Source: a virus. Taken from it: DNA of 64,000 nucleotides. Below, one piece after another: positions 6,932-31,552 of this stretch. The notes below the pieces were generated by a model, which had not been told where the DNA came from, searched no databases, and worked only from the letters and a program-made list of their open reading frames with translations. The stretch covers positions 7,669 to 71,668 of IMG/VR virus record IMGVR_UViG_3300003323_000307; one strand, 5' to 3'. The translations under genes were made by a program, and so were the position numbers. How positions within the stretch are numbered: position 1 is the stretch's first letter; each line of letters begins with the position of its first letter.

Positions 6932-7929
6932 TGGCTTTCAAGTCACTAACTGGTTTTGACTCCAGTTCGCAGCGTGTGATAAACGTTGCAGACCCTAGCT
7001 CAGCTAGCGATGCAGCAACAAAATCCTATGTCGATAACGCCTTGGTAGGTCTCCAGTGGAAGCAGCCTGTCCAAGTAGCTACTACCACTAACGGTACCCT
7101 CGCTACCGCATACGCCAACGGCCAGAGTGTGGACGGGGTTACACTCGCAACTGGCATGCGAATTCTAATTAAGGACCAGACCACTCAAACCGAAAACGGT
7201 ATTTATACTGTTAATGCTTCTGGTGCCCCTACACGAGCCTCAGATGCGGATTCATCTTCTGAACTTCTCAATGCCACGGTGTTTGTTGTTAGGGGGACTG
7301 CTAACGCCGACAAGGCATACACACAGACTACCAACACCTCAGGTGGTCTTGGCCCTGTTATTGGTACAGATAACATTGTTTTTGCTCAGTTTGGTGGAGG
7401 CACCAGCTACTCAGCCGGTAATGGTCTTACACTAACCGGAACCACCTTCGATGTTACCAACACCGATGGTTCCATCACCGTGGGGGCTGACACTATATCC
7501 CTGGCTTCACAGGTGGCGGGTAACGGCCTTACGCTGACCTCTGGTGTCCTCAACGTTGTGGGGGATGCCTCTCTTAACGTTGCGGCCGACCAGATTGGTC
7601 TAGCATCAGGTGTCGCTGGTGCAGGTCTTACCCTAACTGCGGGGGTGCTTGATGTAGGGCAGGGTACAGGTATTACTGTAGCTGCCAACACTGTGAGCAT
7701 TGACTCCACGGTCTGCCGTCGATTCTCGCAGCAGATAGGGAATGGGTCTTCTACTTCTATTGCAGTCACCCATGGTCTGGGAACTAAGGACATCACCTGG
7801 AGTATCCGAGACACTGCCACTGATGCTTTTGTGGTTGCGGATGTAGTTGCTACCAGCACCACTGTGGCTACTTTTACGTTTGCTTCAGCTCCTGCAACCA
7901 ACGCATACAGTGTAACCATTACAGGCTAA
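6931..7929 (+). CDS. tail fibre / virion structural protein
   Basis: DAATKSYVD motif, G/T/A-rich AGNGLTL repeats, C-terminal THGLGT domain. Confidence 0.7.
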   Translation: MAFKSLTGFDSSSQRVINVADPSSASDAATKSYVDNALVGLQWKQPVQVATTTNGTLATAYANGQSVDGVTLATGMRILIKDQTTQTENGIYTVNASGAPTRASDADSSSELLNATVFVVRGTANADKAYTQTTNTSGGLGPVIGTDNIVFAQFGGGTSYSAGNGLTLTGTTFDVTNTDGSITVGADTISLASQVAGNGLTLTSGVLNVVGDASLNVAADQIGLASGVAGAGLTLTAGVLDVGQGTGITVAANTVSIDSTVCRRFSQQIGNGSSTSIAVTHGLGTKDITWSIRDTATDAFVVADVVATSTTVATFTFASAPATNAYSVTITG

Positions 7930-15223: not shown

Positions 15224-15364
15224 ATTTCACGCTCTCTAAAGGGTTTCTGCACTTCAACCGTATACATTTTCGGTGTGCAGACTTCCTTTAACACTTTACC
15301 GTTTCTCTTCAGGTGTAATGCCGATGTATAGCGGCGAACGGACGCGGCGTGATTGCGTAACCCG

Positions 15365-15438
15365 TGGACCTACGGGGATTCGAACCCCGAACCTACTGCG
15401 TGCAAAACAGTCACTCTTCCAGTTGGAGTTACAGGCCC
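15365..15438 (-). tRNA. tRNA-Ala(UGC)
   Basis: Complete 74-nt cloverleaf: acceptor GGGCCUG/UAGGUCC with G3-U70, D-arm ACUC/GAGU, anticodon loop UUUGCAC, T-arm CGGGG UUCGAAU CCCCG. CCA is not encoded. Confidence 0.92.
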
Positions 15439-17582: not shown

Positions 17583-18047
17583 TTAATGCTCATGAGTATG
17601 CCCATCTTCCTGAGCCACCTTGAAGGTGACCGTCTGGTCCGCCGACTTCTGGAAGTCGAACGTGATGGTGGTAGTCTGCCCCACCTTAAGGTGGCCCTTG
17701 AGGTTGATCAGCATCACATGGGGTGTACCCGTGAAGACCACTTCAGAGCGCTTGGGGAGTGGTACGGAGTCCAGCTTGACCATCTTCCCGGACTCAATGG
17801 TGTGCAGCTCAGCAGAGACCGACGTGGGGCTTGAGACAGCTAGGAGAGTGTCATTGGCGGCGCCCTTGTTGATCACCTTCAGGGTGGCGTACGTGTCCTT
17901 CCCCTTGTGACCCGTAACTACGAATCCAGGCCGCACTGTGAGGTCAGGCTTAGGGTCACTTCCGGAGTTGAAGAACAGGTACCCCAGAACGGCCAGAGTA
18001 ATGGCTATCAGGATGATGATGTACTTCTTGTACTTGTCAGACTTCAT
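17583..18047 (-). CDS. PCu(A)C-family copper chaperone
   Basis: N-terminal TM anchor; AELH-x6-M...HVML copper ligands; LKVGQTTTITFDF; C-terminal HTHEH. Confidence 0.8.
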   Translation of the reverse strand: MKSDKYKKYIIILIAITLAVLGYLFFNSGSDPKPDLTVRPGFVVTGHKGKDTYATLKVINKGAANDTLLAVSSPTSVSAELHTIESGKMVKLDSVPLPKRSEVVFTGTPHVMLINLKGHLKVGQTTTITFDFQKSADQTVTFKVAQEDGHTHEH

Positions 18048-18487
18048 AGCCTGGACCTTCTGACCCTCTCATTTTGGTTATGGCATTCTCTGCAAGAACG
18101 CCAACCTGTCTTTGCTTTGTAGGTGTTGCTATCAGAATACTTATGACCCTTAGGGCACACTAGCTTAATCTTATTGTAATTCCTATTTCTAGTGTCCCTA
18201 TCGGCTGCGTTATCCTTAGAAGTACCTATTTCCAAGTGGGCAACAGCAATACAGTTCCGGACATCACATTTATGACGAACTACCATATTGTCTGGGATAG
18301 GGCCGTAATGTAATAGATACTGCAACCTGTGAGTAAGATACCTCTTTTTATTTACTTGTATTTGGCCATAGCCATTTTTAAGTTGAGTGCCCCTCCATAG
18401 CCGACAACTTCCTGACTTTATGCTCCTAGAGAATAGCTTCTCTTTAGCTATAGTCTGCTGCTGGGTCGTAAGGTTCAAGGTCTCCAT
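18044..18487 (-). CDS. HNH homing endonuclease
   Basis: GYGQI...THRL..VVRHKCDVRNCIAVAHL; CPKGH..NT..RSCREC tail. Confidence 0.85.
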   Translation of the reverse strand: METLNLTTQQQTIAKEKLFSRSIKSGSCRLWRGTQLKNGYGQIQVNKKRYLTHRLQYLLHYGPIPDNMVVRHKCDVRNCIAVAHLEIGTSKDNAADRDTRNRNYNKIKLVCPKGHKYSDSNTYKAKTGWRSCRECHNQNERVRRSRL

Positions 18488-20390
18488 AAGTCGGTCCCAA
18501 TTCTACGTCCACTGCAAAAGGTGTATCACTCTCAAAAGGGGGGGTTGTCATGGTCTCACACATGTATGCAATGGCCTCGTGGATGAACTCCTTGCGAACA
18601 TTGGCCACCAGTGAGTCATGAACTGACAAGATGATACGCCCCCAGCCCCTCTCTTGCAATCCCCAGTGAACTTTGATCAAGGACGAGAGGCACAGATCAG
18701 AAGCCATGGACTGTCCAGGGAAGTTGACAGCCTGGTTGTTTACCTTGTTGTAGTTGTCCTTGGTGATGAGATTCCAGCGTCGTTTACGGCCAAGCTCAGT
18801 GGTCAGGAAGAACTGACTATGAGCCTGTTCCCGCCATTCGTCACAGCACATTTTCCATGTGGAGTACATGTTCCAGAAGGTGTCAAGGAACTCTTGAGCC
18901 TTGTCAGGGTCCCCACCTGTGGCTGCTTCCATTGCAGGATCAAGGGACAGCTTGAAACCAGAGATACCATAGCCTGCGCCGAAGTTGACTGACTTCACTG
19001 ACTGACGTTCTGTCGGTGTAACCTCTGACGCAGGCTTGTTGTAAACCTCTGCTGCAAGAGCAGTATGGACATCCCATTCCCCTGTGAGGTTTTCCAGAAG
19101 TACTGGGTCCCCTGTAAGGTGATGGGCAATGAACATCTCCAGAGACTTATAGTCAATGTTTACGATGAGATGTTCATCATCGTCTGCCATAAACAGACGC
19201 TTTACCGCTTTAGAGTTTTGGCTATACTTAGGTACAGTTTGCATCGCAGGATCGTGAATCGCAATACGACCTGTTTTCGTACCGAAGAGTAGGAAATTCG
19301 GATGTACTTTCCCGTCTTCAGCCACGAACTTCTGCATTCCCTCCAAGAAGTTTCGACGTAGATACTGTAGTTCTTTGTACTCAGCAACAAGCTTGGCCAG
19401 AGGATGATTACCGTTATATTTCCAAAAATCTTTATTCGTTGTGTTTTTAGGTTCATGTGGCAAACCCTTCATGTTCAGAATATCGTAGCACAAATGCTGC
19501 ATCTGTTCTGAAGAGTTCACATTAAGAGTTACATCAACCTCAGTTCGGTATCGCTTGTCTGAGCAGCGCTCACAAGTATCGAGAGTCGCACCAGATTCTC
19601 TAAGTCGTTTAGCGTACGACAGGACTCGTAGTCCGTCCAGGAGTCCGTGGTGTTCTTCAGGTACGCACTCACAGATGACCTTGTAACGTCGGCCAATTCC
19701 GGAGTCAGGTCGGGGGAATCCCACGGATGCGGCATAATCCTGAACATTCTTGATTGCCTCCTCGATCTTGGGGAGCCATTCGGCTGAAGTGGTACGGGCA
19801 TACTCTACATCACAGCGCATACCCTGGTATTCAATGTCGGCAAAAGCAGCCTGGGCAGGAAGGAGGATCTCCTTGACGGCTTTCCAGGTCCCCTCCTTTG
19901 TGACACGCTTGGACAGCACGGGGAGGAGCCCGTAAGTGTAGAAGACGTCCTTGCAGCCGTATTCAGCCAGAACATCCGGGCGGATATGGCCGAAGTTCCA
20001 CTTCTTCTTGTCCGTGTCCAGCCACTCTTCAAGGCCCTCTTCATAGAACGGGGCGTCGAGGTCCTGGCGGGAGCGGTATTTCAGACCTACCTGGCGGGCC
20101 TTCTCTGTGGTTCCCAGGGCCAGGCACATGGTGTCCACACTGCGTTCATCTACAGAAACACCCAGCCAATGCTTCACCATCTTGGCATCATGTTTAACGT
20201 TATGCCATACAAACCTAGCATTGGGGTGGTTAAGGAGCCGCTGTACTAGAGGCTTCACACGGGGGTCATTGATGACACCCCAGTTGAATGCATACGCAAT
20301 TGCACCGTCGTAGAGCTGCAACATAGTCAGACTGTGGAAGGGGTTTAGGTCAAAAGACTCTGTGTCAGCCGCGAAGATTTTTTCTGGCAT
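18444..20390 (-). CDS. family A DNA polymerase with 3'-5' exonuclease domain
   Basis: ExoI AADTES, HNVKHD, TKTGR, motif A DYKSLE, motif B KSVNFGAGYG, motif C VHDS. Likely start MPEKIF. Confidence 0.93.
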   Translation of the reverse strand: MPEKIFAADTESFDLNPFHSLTMLQLYDGAIAYAFNWGVINDPRVKPLVQRLLNHPNARFVWHNVKHDAKMVKHWLGVSVDERSVDTMCLALGTTEKARQVGLKYRSRQDLDAPFYEEGLEEWLDTDKKKWNFGHIRPDVLAEYGCKDVFYTYGLLPVLSKRVTKEGTWKAVKEILLPAQAAFADIEYQGMRCDVEYARTTSAEWLPKIEEAIKNVQDYAASVGFPRPDSGIGRRYKVICECVPEEHHGLLDGLRVLSYAKRLRESGATLDTCERCSDKRYRTEVDVTLNVNSSEQMQHLCYDILNMKGLPHEPKNTTNKDFWKYNGNHPLAKLVAEYKELQYLRRNFLEGMQKFVAEDGKVHPNFLLFGTKTGRIAIHDPAMQTVPKYSQNSKAVKRLFMADDDEHLIVNIDYKSLEMFIAHHLTGDPVLLENLTGEWDVHTALAAEVYNKPASEVTPTERQSVKSVNFGAGYGISGFKLSLDPAMEAATGGDPDKAQEFLDTFWNMYSTWKMCCDEWREQAHSQFFLTTELGRKRRWNLITKDNYNKVNNQAVNFPGQSMASDLCLSSLIKVHWGLQERGWGRIILSVHDSLVANVRKEFIHEAIAYMCETMTTPPFESDTPFAVDVELGPTYGDLEPYDPAADYS

Positions 20391-20823
20391 ACCAATCCCT
20401 TTGAGCTTTCTTCCTACACTCACTACATCTGCGGTTACGACGAGTCTCAGCTAACTTGTGGATACCCTTTTTGCAGTATTCATATTCTCTACCTGCATTA
20501 GAGGGAGCCCGGCCCCGGGCGTACATATCCTGTAGATTCTCAGCTTGTGTGCCCAGCTCCAAATGACTAGGGTTCACACACGGGGGGTTGTCACAACGGT
20601 GACGGACAACTAGCCCTTCGGGTATATTTCCAAAATGTAGTACCCAAGAAAATCTATGAGCTTGCCATATAAAGCCTCCAGCTCCTCCCTCCGAAATTCG
20701 ACCATACCCTCTACTATTACGACAAGCTAACCATACCCAGCAATCATCCTCACCTTGTATATCTACTTTCTCCCAAAACCTAGCCTCTGTAGGTTTATTC
20801 TGGCTTCCTTTAGGTCTCCCCAT
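20365..20823 (-). CDS. HNH homing endonuclease inserted between the UDG-like and polymerase genes
   Basis: RFWEKV..CWVW..GYG..AHRFSW..VVRHRCDNPPCVNPSHL. Confidence 0.9.
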   Translation of the reverse strand: MGRPKGSQNKPTEARFWEKVDIQGEDDCWVWLACRNSRGYGRISEGGAGGFIWQAHRFSWVLHFGNIPEGLVVRHRCDNPPCVNPSHLELGTQAENLQDMYARGRAPSNAGREYEYCKKGIHKLAETRRNRRCSECRKKAQRDWYARKNLRG

Positions 20824-28311: not shown

Positions 28312-29687
28312 TCATTCGTCCCTCGCCCACTTGGCCATAGCTTCCGCAATACCGGAGAAACGGCCATCCAGGACTTGCTTGATGGCCATGTCTACTGACC
28401 CTTTGGCTCGGACGTGGTGCACCTGCACGACGCGTCCTTGCCCCCTCCTGCACACCCGTTTAATGGTTTGCTCGATATCGGCAGGTAGTTCGGAGTGTTC
28501 GAGGAAGACGACGTCTGTAGCTTCTGTGAGGCTGATGCCTTCTTTGAGGCTTGGGATGGTCGCGACAAGAACTTGCGGACCATCACTAGCTCGCCATTCT
28601 GCAATGACAGATTCACGCCTTCCTGGGAGAACGGAACCTGTGACAAGTACCGCTTGGCTGCCCAGAGCATCAGCGATCGCGCCAGCCGAATCTTTATACC
28701 ATACGTAAACCACCACTTTAGATCGGCGATCTGTGAGGAAATCTTTGAGCCAATCGATTTTCGGGTTAGCTTTCGTAGGCGGTACAGTCGCAATCTGACG
28801 CTGTTTGACATAGAGAGCACCAGAGCCTTTGAGAAATTCAGTATGTGCCAGATCTTCATGCTCCAGTACATAATCCTTCTTCGCTTTCTTGATCATCTTG
28901 ACTACCGAGGCAGGCAGCTCCACCTGGTATTCATGCTCCTGATATTCCAGGCTGGCTAGCTGCGGGATCTCAGCCACCGTACGACGCATGCTGAACTGGG
29001 CAAGCTCTTGCTTGAACTGCTCTACGTAGTCTTTGCGTATGTTGCCGACTGTGGTTGACCAGGGATTTGTATAGACCACACACCGGTCGTTGACAAATTT
29101 CCAGTACGAGGAGTATTTCTTTTTATCGTAAAGATGAAAATACGGGAAGAAGTCTCCGCCATCACGCACAAACGGGGTACCCGTAAGAACCCAGATGGGT
29201 GTTTCCCGGTTACTACTAGCAGATAGTCTCGTTTTAAAGGTATGCTTCGTCCACGCAGAATTACGGCCACGGAGTCTGTGCCCCTCATCGAAGATGTACG
29301 CTGACCACTTACGGCCTACAAGTAGTCCCCCGTACGTATAGTCTCGACCTTTTTTCGCCGCCCAGTTGTGGTAAGACGTGAGTATGAAATCCGCGTTGCT
29401 CGAAAGTGCTTCGCTACGAAGTTCAGTACCGGATCCGTCAGCCGATACCACAGTGGCATCCGGGCAGAAGGCATTGATCTCCTTTACGGTATTAGGTATA
29501 AGGTACGCTGGGCATGTCCATAGAACTGGGTTTCCAGTCCTCTGGATAAGTTCCCAACCTGCCATAATACTAGGTCCAGTTTTCCCAACTAAACTCCGGG
29601 CTCATCAAAAAGCCCGGCAAACCTCCCTGAGTTAAGTAGGAAGTCTCTAGACTCTACCTGGTAGTCATCCAGAATTTTTTCTGGCAT
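28312..29687 (-). CDS. SNF2-family helicase with Walker A interrupted by a stop and frame change at 29587-29594
   Basis: 5' piece MPEKILDDYQ...FDEPGV* (29687-29589); 3' frame GKT..., DEGH, LTGTP, EGISL, Q...RVCRRGQ. Confidence 0.85.
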
Positions 29688-30111
29688 AGTAGTTTCTCCA
29701 AGCCTCATTTTTGCAGATACGACATTGAGTATACCCATCAGCTCTTGGAGTACTATTTGCTTTGGTGAGAAGGTGGCCCTTTAGACACCGGAATCTTCGG
29801 GGTCTACGTTGGCAATTTTCCTTTGGGGTTACCAAGTCTAAGTGTCTCGGGTTTACACAGTCCCTATATCTACATTTGTGATCCAATTGCATATTATTAG
29901 GCTTGGGTCCATTAAATTGTTCCCAAGAAAATACGTGAGCCTTAACCGATTTCCTGTGATGTACTGCAAAAACTCCATAACCTTGTTGCACTGACCCTAA
30001 CCAGTGCCAACAGCCTTCAGTCTTCTGGACTTTACTCCAGAATCTATCTACAGGGTCGGTTAATATAAATCTACCTGAACCATCCCTTGTTGTCACTGAC
30101 CCTTCTTCCAT
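29665..30111 (-). CDS. HNH homing endonuclease
   Basis: RFWSKV..CWHW..GYG..LDHKC...CVNPRHL; CLKGH..CRIC. Confidence 0.9.
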   Translation of the reverse strand: MEEGSVTTRDGSGRFILTDPVDRFWSKVQKTEGCWHWLGSVQQGYGVFAVHHRKSVKAHVFSWEQFNGPKPNNMQLDHKCRYRDCVNPRHLDLVTPKENCQRRPRRFRCLKGHLLTKANSTPRADGYTQCRICKNEAWRNYYARKNSG

Positions 30112-30389
30112 CGGACTATCTTCACCAGGTAGGAGGGAGAGCCACAGGTTTTACATACCGCAGAATCTTTGTCGAAAATACCCTCTCCATAAGCTTCTCG
30201 AAGAGCGTTTCCATCCGCCTCGCAGAAGTACCAGTCCGCAGGCCAGCATTCGCACGACCAGTTATAGGTGGCTTTCCAAGTAGCTTCCTTGTCACACCCA
30301 CCAATAGCCATGCACGGTTCGGCCTCATCCTCCGAGAACTCCACCCAGGTTAGGTCCAGAGGATTTGTTGTGTGAGTAGGGGTAGTCAC
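30093..30389 (-). CDS. hypothetical Cys-rich protein
   Basis: GTGA-coupled ORF. Confidence 0.5.
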   Translation of the reverse strand: MTTPTHTTNPLDLTWVEFSEDEAEPCMAIGGCDKEATWKATYNWSCECWPADWYFCEADGNALREAYGEGIFDKDSAVCKTCGSPSYLVKIVRWKKGQ

Positions 30390-31459
30390 TTGTTCTTCTG
30401 CCTCTCTACATAGCGCCGCTGGTTTTCACGTCGGCAGACCTTGCACCGGAGAGCCCCGTCAAGGCCCACCTTCTCCTTCAGATGACCCTTAGGGCAATGT
30501 GTGGTGGGCTTACGTCCACCCTTACGGGCATGGCCTGTCTTCTTACGTTCGTTGACTCCCTGTGCGGCAGCAGACTTGCAAGTGCTGCATGACCGGTACC
30601 AGTACCCACCTTCACGACGAGCTACTACCGTATTTTCCGGGGTCCGCTCATGGTTCTTGGTGCAAGTACCATGGTAAGGATCCACCACAATGTGAGCCTG
30701 GTTCACAGCGCGCTGGATCATCATATTGCCATGGGCAGATGGATGGTCCGTGTTCCCGTAGTGGCGCCCGATATCCGTGGGGGAGTAACCCTCTGCAAAA
30801 TACATATACAGCACTGTACGGTGCTGTTCTGTGAGCTGGGAGAGGACTTCCTTGAAGTGCTGGTCTTCTACAAAGAGGTCTTCAAAGGACTCCCGGAGTT
30901 CCAGTTTGGGGTTGTCCGACCAATGGCGGTTACTGGACTCCACCCCCGCCTCTGAGTAAGTCATCAGCTCCAGTGACATGGTCGAATAGTGGTTCCAGTC
31001 CATACGCCCGTCCGGGCGGTAGACCATGTGATCCACCCGGCCTTCCCGGATGTCCTTGAGGATCTTCTGAGCACTGGAGTGATTGATACCCAGAGCATCC
31101 GAGACTGTCTTAGGAGTCGGCCAGACACCTTCACGGAGACCCTTGGTCTCTTCCAGATAAGCCTTGACCTTCTCCACGGTTGCCTGGTTTGTCCGAAGCC
31201 CGTCCCGGGACTTCTTGGGCTTACCGAAGGAGTATTCACCGTTCCTGTGAAGATACTTTTCGGCTGACATCTTGGCCCGACGGAGAACCTTGAGCTTGGG
31301 GGTTACCCCTGCCTGCACATCCCGCCAAGCCTGAATAAGGCCCTCCTGGAATGCGTCGTTGTACATCTCCGGTAGATGCTTGCGCCACTTAGCCAAGGAT
31401 ACCGTGAGGTAGGATACTACCTCATTGTGAATTTCGTCGTACGTTGTGTAATCACTCAT
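30386..31459 (-). CDS. RNA polymerase sigma-factor-like protein with two C-terminal Zn-finger modules
   Basis: Region 2-like DAFQEGLIQAW; region 3-like WPTPKTVSDALGI; region 4-like LSQLTEQHRTVLYMYFAEGYSPTDIG; start MSDYTT after a GGAGG RBS. Confidence 0.75.
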   Translation of the reverse strand: MSDYTTYDEIHNEVVSYLTVSLAKWRKHLPEMYNDAFQEGLIQAWRDVQAGVTPKLKVLRRAKMSAEKYLHRNGEYSFGKPKKSRDGLRTNQATVEKVKAYLEETKGLREGVWPTPKTVSDALGINHSSAQKILKDIREGRVDHMVYRPDGRMDWNHYSTMSLELMTYSEAGVESSNRHWSDNPKLELRESFEDLFVEDQHFKEVLSQLTEQHRTVLYMYFAEGYSPTDIGRHYGNTDHPSAHGNMMIQRAVNQAHIVVDPYHGTCTKNHERTPENTVVARREGGYWYRSCSTCKSAAAQGVNERKKTGHARKGGRKPTTHCPKGHLKEKVGLDGALRCKVCRRENQRRYVERQKNK

Positions 31460-31510
31460 ATTGCCCTCCAACACGAGTGTGCCCAGGCTAACACCTGGGC
31501 AAACATAAGA

Positions 31511-31552
31511 CAATCCCCCTGTCAGGACTTGAGTCAACCGACAGGGGGATTG
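31511..31552. terminator. hairpin (terminator or regulatory site) upstream of the sigma gene
   Basis: CAATCCCCCTGTC...GACAGGGGGATTG inverted repeat. Confidence 0.5.

Follow-up and report, generated by a model that had tools for sequence, protein, structure and literature searches.

Background

The described systems closest to the locus reported here are those of the T4 gene 60/MobA family, in which translation bypasses part of the messenger. According to the sections on bypassing in Atkins et al. (2016, PMC5009743), the gene 60 insert protects against a homing endonuclease. In the part of Manning and Atkins (2022, bioRxiv 10.1101/2022.08.31.505936) that describes these elements, the MobA-bypass cassette is presented as mobile, with recent independent insertions, and the gene 60 cassette as being marked by a stop or hungry codon, a 5' stem-loop and linkage to an HNH endonuclease. 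The locus analysed here lies in a stretch of 64,000 nucleotides (nt), called the window below, which is part of the 71,668-base-pair (bp) IMG/VR virus record IMGVR_UViG_3300003323_000307 (positions 7,669 to 71,668). On the minus strand of the window, a SNF2-family helicase gene carries 5 extra nt within its Walker A motif, and a UAG stop follows directly on a valine codon of that motif. This arrangement is read most economically as a short translational hop that occurs in nature and is linked to an HNH homing endonuclease; judging by the sequence and its relatives, this reading is probable.

With T4 gene 60 and MobA the locus shares several features: take-off and landing codons match, a stop or hungry codon follows the take-off codon, a stem-loop lies 5' of it, the insert falls within a motif that is conserved in an essential-type DNA enzyme, an HNH endonuclease gene is found directly upstream, and the occurrences are many, independent and apparently recent. 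The gene 60 cassette is defined by a gap of about 50 nt in the gene for the large subunit of topoisomerase II, together with a take-off stem-loop, a mini Shine-Dalgarno element and a nascent-peptide signal, whereas 2-4 nt would be skipped here (by hops of +5 to +7), which leaves too little space for a take-off stem-loop or a Shine-Dalgarno element within the gap. Unlike T4, the host gene is that of a SNF2 helicase and remains undivided, the endonuclease belongs to the Pfam family HNH_3, and no nascent-peptide signal is known here. By this comparison, the window site appears to work like the T4 gene 60/MobA family, and is not a member of it.

Shorter movements have also been described. In the passages of PMC6815119 concerned with stalling, ribosomes held at a stop codon hop, landing on codons with which the P-site anticodon can pair. 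Synthetic stop-hops with matched codons are described in the same sections of Atkins et al. (2016), which state that natural hopping over an in-frame stop was not known; to judge from these sections, two of the relatives discussed below have exactly that layout (L002, GTT TAG GTT; L029, GTT TAG GTG). Unlike the synthetic constructs, the alleles reported here are natural variants of a real gene with an adjacent hairpin, and the landing codon of the window, at +5, has a letter in common with the stop, so that the hop would also change the frame. The synthetic stop-hops in E. coli are reportedly those of Weiss et al. in 1987. Pairing of the exiting mRNA as a driver of forward bypassing is the subject of a 2024 preprint.

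Bypassing at UUA may be used by the terminase of phage Hau3, according to the sections already mentioned of Atkins et al. (2016). As in that case, the gene concerned belongs to a phage, a rare UUA serves as the key slow codon in two of the alleles (L044 and L040), and TTA is avoided. The gene itself is a different one, as is the distance, put at 10 nt in an earlier sequence-only reading of the window, and in those sections the Hau3 event is thought to be regulatory, not insert-neutralising, with no HNH link described. A further likeness is with +1 frameshifting in prfB, the gene of release factor 2 (RF2), where, in the relevant parts of Atkins et al. (2016) and PMC6815119, a stop in the A site and a stimulator just upstream push the ribosome forward. 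In prfB the ribosome slips by +1 to a codon that overlaps the first one, a Shine-Dalgarno-like element drives the slip, and the event is autoregulatory; the move considered here would cover 5-7 nt, to a codon that overlaps the first one barely or not at all.

That nature should hold shorter equivalents of the T4 gene 60 bypass has long been expected in the recoding field. A literature search returned no account of such a hop occurring naturally in the helicase of a phage; the supplementary tables of Manning and Atkins (2022), outside that search, may list short-gap variants. If the proposed reading is true, the alleles described here would be the first stop-hops known from nature and, in a minimal and evolvable form, a counterpart of T4 gene 60, and homing endonucleases would be paired with bypassed inserts outside the T4-like phages as well. 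The natural 5-, 6- and 7-nt alleles, with one take-off codon, a defined hairpin and a stop or rare codon, also constitute a ready mutant series, usable for studying how ribosomes release and find again a codon.

The interrupted helicase gene and its family

Read directly in the window, the minus strand at the helicase site is ...CCC GGA GTT TAG TT GGG AAA ACT... The upstream part of the gene, open reading frame 1 (ORF1; 29592..29687, minus strand), runs for 32 codons (MPEKILDDYQ...AGLFDEPGV) from the ATG at 29687 to the take-off GTT; including its stop it covers 29687-29589 and ends as ...AGLFDEPGV* at the TAG 29591-29589. A GGAG is found at 29699-29696, 8 nt 5' of the ATG, and the N-terminus of ORF1 aligns with those of uninterrupted homologues. 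Its product of 32 amino acids (aa) is recorded as P0121, and a search for ORF1-like fragments among short proteins returned only this product. The take-off codon, GTT (Val) at 29592..29594, is followed by the UAG stop at 29589..29591, which is in the A site while GUU occupies the P site. The landing codon, GTT at 29587..29589, lies 5 nt 3' of the take-off codon, shares its G with the stop and is the first GUN codon 3' of take-off (all on the minus strand).

The remainder of the gene, ORF2 (28312..29586, minus strand), resumes with GGG AAA ACT (GKT, 29586-29578) and ends at the TGA 28314-28312. As called, from the ATG at 29565 to 28312, it has 417 aa; its frame is open further upstream through VGKTGPSIM, back to 29589, and from 29589 to 28312 it reads VGKTGPSIMAGWE... 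The frames of ORF1 and ORF2 differ by +2 (equivalently -1). The 417-aa part matches the SNF2-related and Helicase_C families of Pfam (PF00176, E 2.8e-14; PF00271, E 8.1e-10), which assigns it to the SNF2-family helicases of superfamily 2 (SF2). Motif II is kept as DEGH, and motif I, GxGKT, is complete only once a hop joins the two frames.

The insert thus consists of 5 nt (GTTTA, equivalently TAGTT) between the Gly and Val codons of the Walker A sequence PGVGKT. These extra 5 nt are a real feature of the assembled sequence. In the window, the insert rests on one assembly and on the four homologous inserts described below. A look-up of sequencing runs listed no RNA run; the only run listed, DNA run X1 from a related strain (0.23 of words shared), yielded contigs that leave 29483-30091 uncovered. 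In order to see how often such an arrangement occurs in the window, a loose scan was made for stops followed by a codon, 5-9 nt on, matching the first two letters of the codon before the stop, the frame being open for no fewer than 30 codons before and 150 codons after. The scan returned 21 sites. The stop with a matched codon is, taken alone, within chance, and the case therefore rests on the position in the Walker A motif and on the comparison with relatives.

Homologues of ORF2 numbered 176 at E <= 1e-10, and 120 of them were listed; the family counts given here and below refer to those listed. The Q-motif/DYQ region and GxGK[TS] are found in one frame in 101 of the 120. Among these 101 uninterrupted proteins, 96 have GVGK[TS] and 52 have DEPGVGKT, the commonest form, while a longer P-loop is found in none (0/101). 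A hop from the GTT at 29594-29592 to the GTT at 29589-29587 would yield exactly DEPGVGKT, the form typical of the family. The sequence-only reading had proposed this 5-nt hop from GUU to GUU; its result agrees with the family norm, and the positions which that reading had given are all correct.

The other 19 listed homologues comprise 14 that look interrupted and five truncated elsewhere. Proteins of the former kind either start just past the loop (MAGW..., MAAW..., MGKT...) or carry the ORF1 region out of frame; wrong-frame ORF1 N-termini were recognised in P0007, P0089, P0103 and P0054. Gene callers report interrupted helicases as truncated or wrong-frame proteins. Among cultured phages, a megablast search with the locus gave no match, and tblastn retrieved only relatives of 27% identity or less, which leaves no cultured relative to rely on.

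Interrupted alleles in related contigs

Scans with a profile of the family identified 22 loci in viral contigs, 64 in metagenome contigs and one distant locus from genome contigs, a partial match of 27% identity. The site was read in 15 viral and 41 metagenome loci, three of the 41 ending before it. Four of these loci, L002, L029, L044 and L040, are interrupted, and all the others covering the site are uninterrupted. The sequence-only reading had suggested looking for the same insertion in related phages; the four contigs carry inserts of 6 or 7 nt, and in all cases the point of insertion is identical, between the Gly and Val codons. A pattern scan of the viral contigs for the site returned the contig of L002 only. 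L029 and L044 come from one sample series and belong to different phages.

The window reads CCC GGA GTT TA GTT GGG AAA ACT (shift +5). L002 reads CCC GGC GTT TAG GTT GGT AAA ACT (+6, in frame), L029 reads CCC GGC GTT TAG GTG GGG AAA TCT (+6), L044 reads CCC GGC GTT TTAG GTG GGT AAA ACT (+7) and L040 reads CCA GGA GTT TTAT GCT GGG AAA ACT (+7). The take-off codon is GTT in all five alleles. In four of them it is paired with a matching landing codon, which is GTT in the window and L002 and GTG in L029 and L044. Only one kind of event, a hop from GUU to the first GUN downstream, would give PGVGK[TS] in these four of the five alleles, across frame relations of +2, 0 and +1; because three frame relations are involved, no single frameshift or readthrough event serves all of them.

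The codon after take-off is in every allele one expected to be decoded slowly: UAG in three and UUA in two. TTA is the rarest sense codon in 21 genes of the window (11 of 8289 codons); it is likewise the rarest in L040 (4/2484), and is absent from the ORFs of L044 (0/627) and L029. A passing remark on rare UUA in the sequence-only reading is echoed by the GTT TTA that L044 and L040 have at take-off.

The Lys codon of GKT (29581-29583 in the window) was also compared, with the 17 intact alleles that were aligned at the site beside the interrupted ones. It is AAA in all five interrupted alleles and in 5 of these 17 (Fisher p 0.0096). This bias may reflect AAAAC pairing with GUUU(U), a common origin of this segment, or the target of the endonuclease.

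A hairpin 5' of the take-off codon

In the window, a hairpin CCGGGCU/AGCCCGG (29596..29617, minus strand; arms 29617-29611 and 29602-29596) ends 1 nt before the take-off codon, and RNAfold adds an eighth pair to it. Over 71 nt, the predicted folding energy is -25.2 kcal/mol (z -2.43). For the 30 nt preceding take-off, the predicted energies are -15.9 kcal/mol in the window, -15.9 in L002, -14.0 in L044 and -16.5 in L040. A hairpin of 7-9 bp, with its 3' arm ending 0-1 nt before GTT, is found in all four testable interrupted alleles, the contig of L029 being too short for inclusion.

The same region was evaluated in 44 intact loci, near-duplicates included. Their mean is -6.3 kcal/mol, a value of -14 being reached by L004 and L047 alone (Mann-Whitney p 0.0008); when redundancy is removed, leaving 36 intact loci, the p-value is 0.001. 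Among alleles with the AG...PG residues, -14 is reached by 3/3 interrupted and 2/9 intact ones (p 0.045). The clade of the window has mostly other residues at this place (FRCLFD and similar), with weak folds of -3.7 to -6.3 kcal/mol. The hairpin abutting the take-off codon had been noticed in the sequence-only reading; strong folds at this place prove to be enriched among interrupted alleles.

The hairpin of L040, of 9 bp, has another sequence and another register, and was on account of its register counted as a different hairpin at the same place. Covariation of the hairpin was considered and rejected, the pairs of L040 not being compensatory. A 3' stem of 8 bp, spanning take-off, stop and landing codons, is possible in the window; the four relatives fold there differently and weakly, and it was dropped as a shared signal since it is not common to them.

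HNH endonuclease genes

Directly upstream of the helicase gene lies an HNH_3 endonuclease gene (29665..30111, minus strand; PF13392, E 9.1e-13), the last 23 nt of which, stop included, overlap the helicase gene. The same HNH-helicase layout is found in L002, and L040 also has an adjacent HNH_3 gene. In order to evaluate this association, the 1 kb upstream of each helicase was searched with a hidden Markov model of six HNH proteins, intact loci being counted when they had at least 600 nt of flank. Besides the window, an HNH gene is found upstream in two of three interrupted loci, as against 1/37 intact ones, the single intact locus being L067; with the window included, it is directly upstream in 3/4 interrupted loci versus 1/37 (Fisher p 0.0015).

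The HNH proteins are 29-52% identical to one another, and those adjacent to helicases do not group together by BLAST scores. The one from locus L067 is short (113 aa) and has no C-terminal Cys-rich part of the kind seen in the others. As to co-conversion, no clear signal was found that the ORF1 DNA of interrupted alleles is closer than their ORF2 proteins predict. A run X1 contig of a close strain matches 30092-30200 and then diverges from the window towards the HNH gene; the HNH region may differ between close strains.

Three further HNH_3 genes were found on the minus strand of the window, at 18044-18487, 20365-20823 and 40711-41184. The first two flank a family A DNA polymerase gene (18444-20423), and the third follows an FtsK-like ATPase gene (41151-42296). 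The genome looks heavily colonised by free-standing homing-type endonucleases. No interruption similar to that of the helicase was seen in the regions 3' of the genes at 18044-18487 and 40711-41184, and the PolA gene 3' of the one at 20365-20823 gives a complete Pfam match.

The proposed hop

The arrangement suggests that full-length helicase is probably made only if the ribosome hops between the valine codons. In the window, peptidyl-tRNA-Val would sit on GUU in the P site, with UAG decoded slowly in the A site; the tRNA would unpair, the messenger would slip by 5 nt, and the tRNA would pair again with the next GUU, decoding being resumed at GGG AAA ACT to give DEPGVGKT. The hairpin may re-form behind the stalled ribosome and pull the messenger forward. 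The full-length product, of about 456 aa, is predicted to contain the junction peptide ...FAGLFDEPGVGK. The presence of the insert is probably due to the neighbouring HNH homing endonuclease, whose target in the conserved Walker A DNA it would break, as a 'savior indel' comparable to the 50-nt insert of T4 gene 60 with respect to MobA.

The hop and its efficiency, the part of the hairpin and the immunity function are what we infer from the site sequence, its homologues, the family motif and the hairpin and HNH statistics. The hop put forward in the sequence-only reading gains support from this comparative evidence, and remains at the level of a prediction. None of the 16 interrupted or suspected alleles has a broken ORF2, DEGH and the motif VI residues are kept, and by this measure the helicase gene looks still functional. 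More tentatively, and with a little less confidence than an even chance, the alleles may be taken as a family of miniature HNH-linked bypass cassettes, in which inserts of 5-7 nt in Walker A would shield the genome from its own endonuclease and would be neutralised by a hairpin-driven hop.

Alternative explanations

The best surviving alternative, which we nevertheless hold to be unlikely, is that the insert inactivates the gene, as a scar or self-protecting indel arising from the HNH endonuclease, too recent for decay to have set in. Several observations that weigh against a hop are best considered together with it. A quick IQ-TREE phylogeny was built on 118 rows (116 proteins plus L029 and L044, with four short proteins and P0121 left out and P0028 unscored). 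The 16 interrupted or suspected rows, 11 of which were assigned from the N-terminus of the called protein and not from DNA, require 16 changes on this tree, at least 11 of them forced, and do not cluster. Being scattered on separate tips, the interruptions may each be recent, so that an open ORF2 is weak proof of function. Interrupted tips are also slightly longer (median 0.21 vs 0.16, p 0.047), and on average they show changes at 3.5% of 117 conserved columns, as compared with 1.3% (p 0.0026; p 0.007 after regression on branch length), in a test slightly biased by the choice of the columns on the intact rows, where they are at least 95% conserved. The window has five such changes of 117 (W26T, V109T, T167N, L371V and L410M), and L029 has 8/62.

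Individual alleles add to these difficulties. L040 lands on GCT, without a matched codon and without a nearby stop, and has the longest branch (0.82) and 16/117 deviations, all of which would fit an inactivated gene. The out-of-frame N-terminus of P0007 implies GTT (T/C)CA after take-off, a codon other than UUA or a stop. In part, the hairpin follows simply from the Ala-Gly...Pro-Gly codons, and the intact L004 and L047 fold as strongly as the interrupted alleles. In L044 the interruption occurs with no HNH gene next to it, L067 combines an HNH gene (434-775) with an uninterrupted helicase site, and the association with adjacent HNH genes fits endonuclease damage equally well. Finally, short hops are inefficient in E. 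coli constructs.

Random scars, on the other hand, would not restore, in four of five alleles, a correctly spaced Val codon, set UAG or the rarest sense codon next in all five, and coincide with a strong hairpin at take-off in all four that could be folded. No second lesion is seen over more than 400 codons in the approximately 14 members, of the 120 listed, that look interrupted near this site, a count from which the length filter would hide decayed copies. The deviations at conserved columns are mostly conservative ones, and the catalytic motifs are kept.

A different form of recoding, keeping two extra residues in the P-loop (PGV-x-VGKT), appears quite improbable. It would operate by a -1 shift in the window, by readthrough in L002 and L029 and, in L044 and L040, by a +1 shift. 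GV-x-(V/A)-GK[TS] is a formally possible reading of all five alleles, and L040 is more easily explained by a +1 shift at its hungry UUA than by a hop; yet three unrelated mechanisms would be required at one homologous site, and the longer loop that they would produce has no precedent among the uninterrupted homologues listed. For L044, the +1 frame meets a TAG at once. Programmed -1 frameshifting was rejected for the window, the overlap of the two frames (GCC CGG AGT TTA G) containing no X XXY YYZ slippery heptamer. TAG serves as an ordinary stop: 22 of 101 long ORFs of the window end in it, by which a reassignment was rejected, and the window TAG is out of frame with ORF2. A suppressor tRNA was likewise rejected, the only tRNA gene of the window being that of tRNA-Ala(TGC) (15364-15438, minus strand).

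Still less probable is that the two parts of the gene act separately, as a 32-aa peptide and an ORF2 protein begun at the ATG 29565 (GTG in relatives) and devoid of the GKT loop. Gene callers do annotate such products (P0001, P0121, P0003, P0004, P0021, P0066, P0073 and others), and the landing GTG of L029, L044 and P0067 could serve as a start. However, the landing GTT of the window and L002 is no start codon, the break would fall within the ATP-binding loop, and a start at 29565 would omit VGKTGPSI, although this segment fits the family consensus.

That the 5 nt are an assembly or sequencing error is hardly credible: the window does come from a single metagenome assembly, but differing inserts of 6 or 7 nt occupy the identical site in four other contigs (of which three come from different samples and assemblies), a matching N-terminal anomaly is seen in about nine more of the called proteins, and an error would not bring the clade-atypical Ala-Gly codons that form the hairpin.

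Other features of the window

Two further reading frames on the minus strand were noted. A 383-aa ORF at 30386-31537 shows weak matches to sigma-70 region 4, below the Pfam cut-off, and has a Cys-rich C-terminal tail which, by eye, is like the tail of the HNH proteins. The ORF at 17583-18047 matches the copper chaperone family PCu(A)C (PF04314, E 1.7e-18), an unusual cargo beside replication genes.

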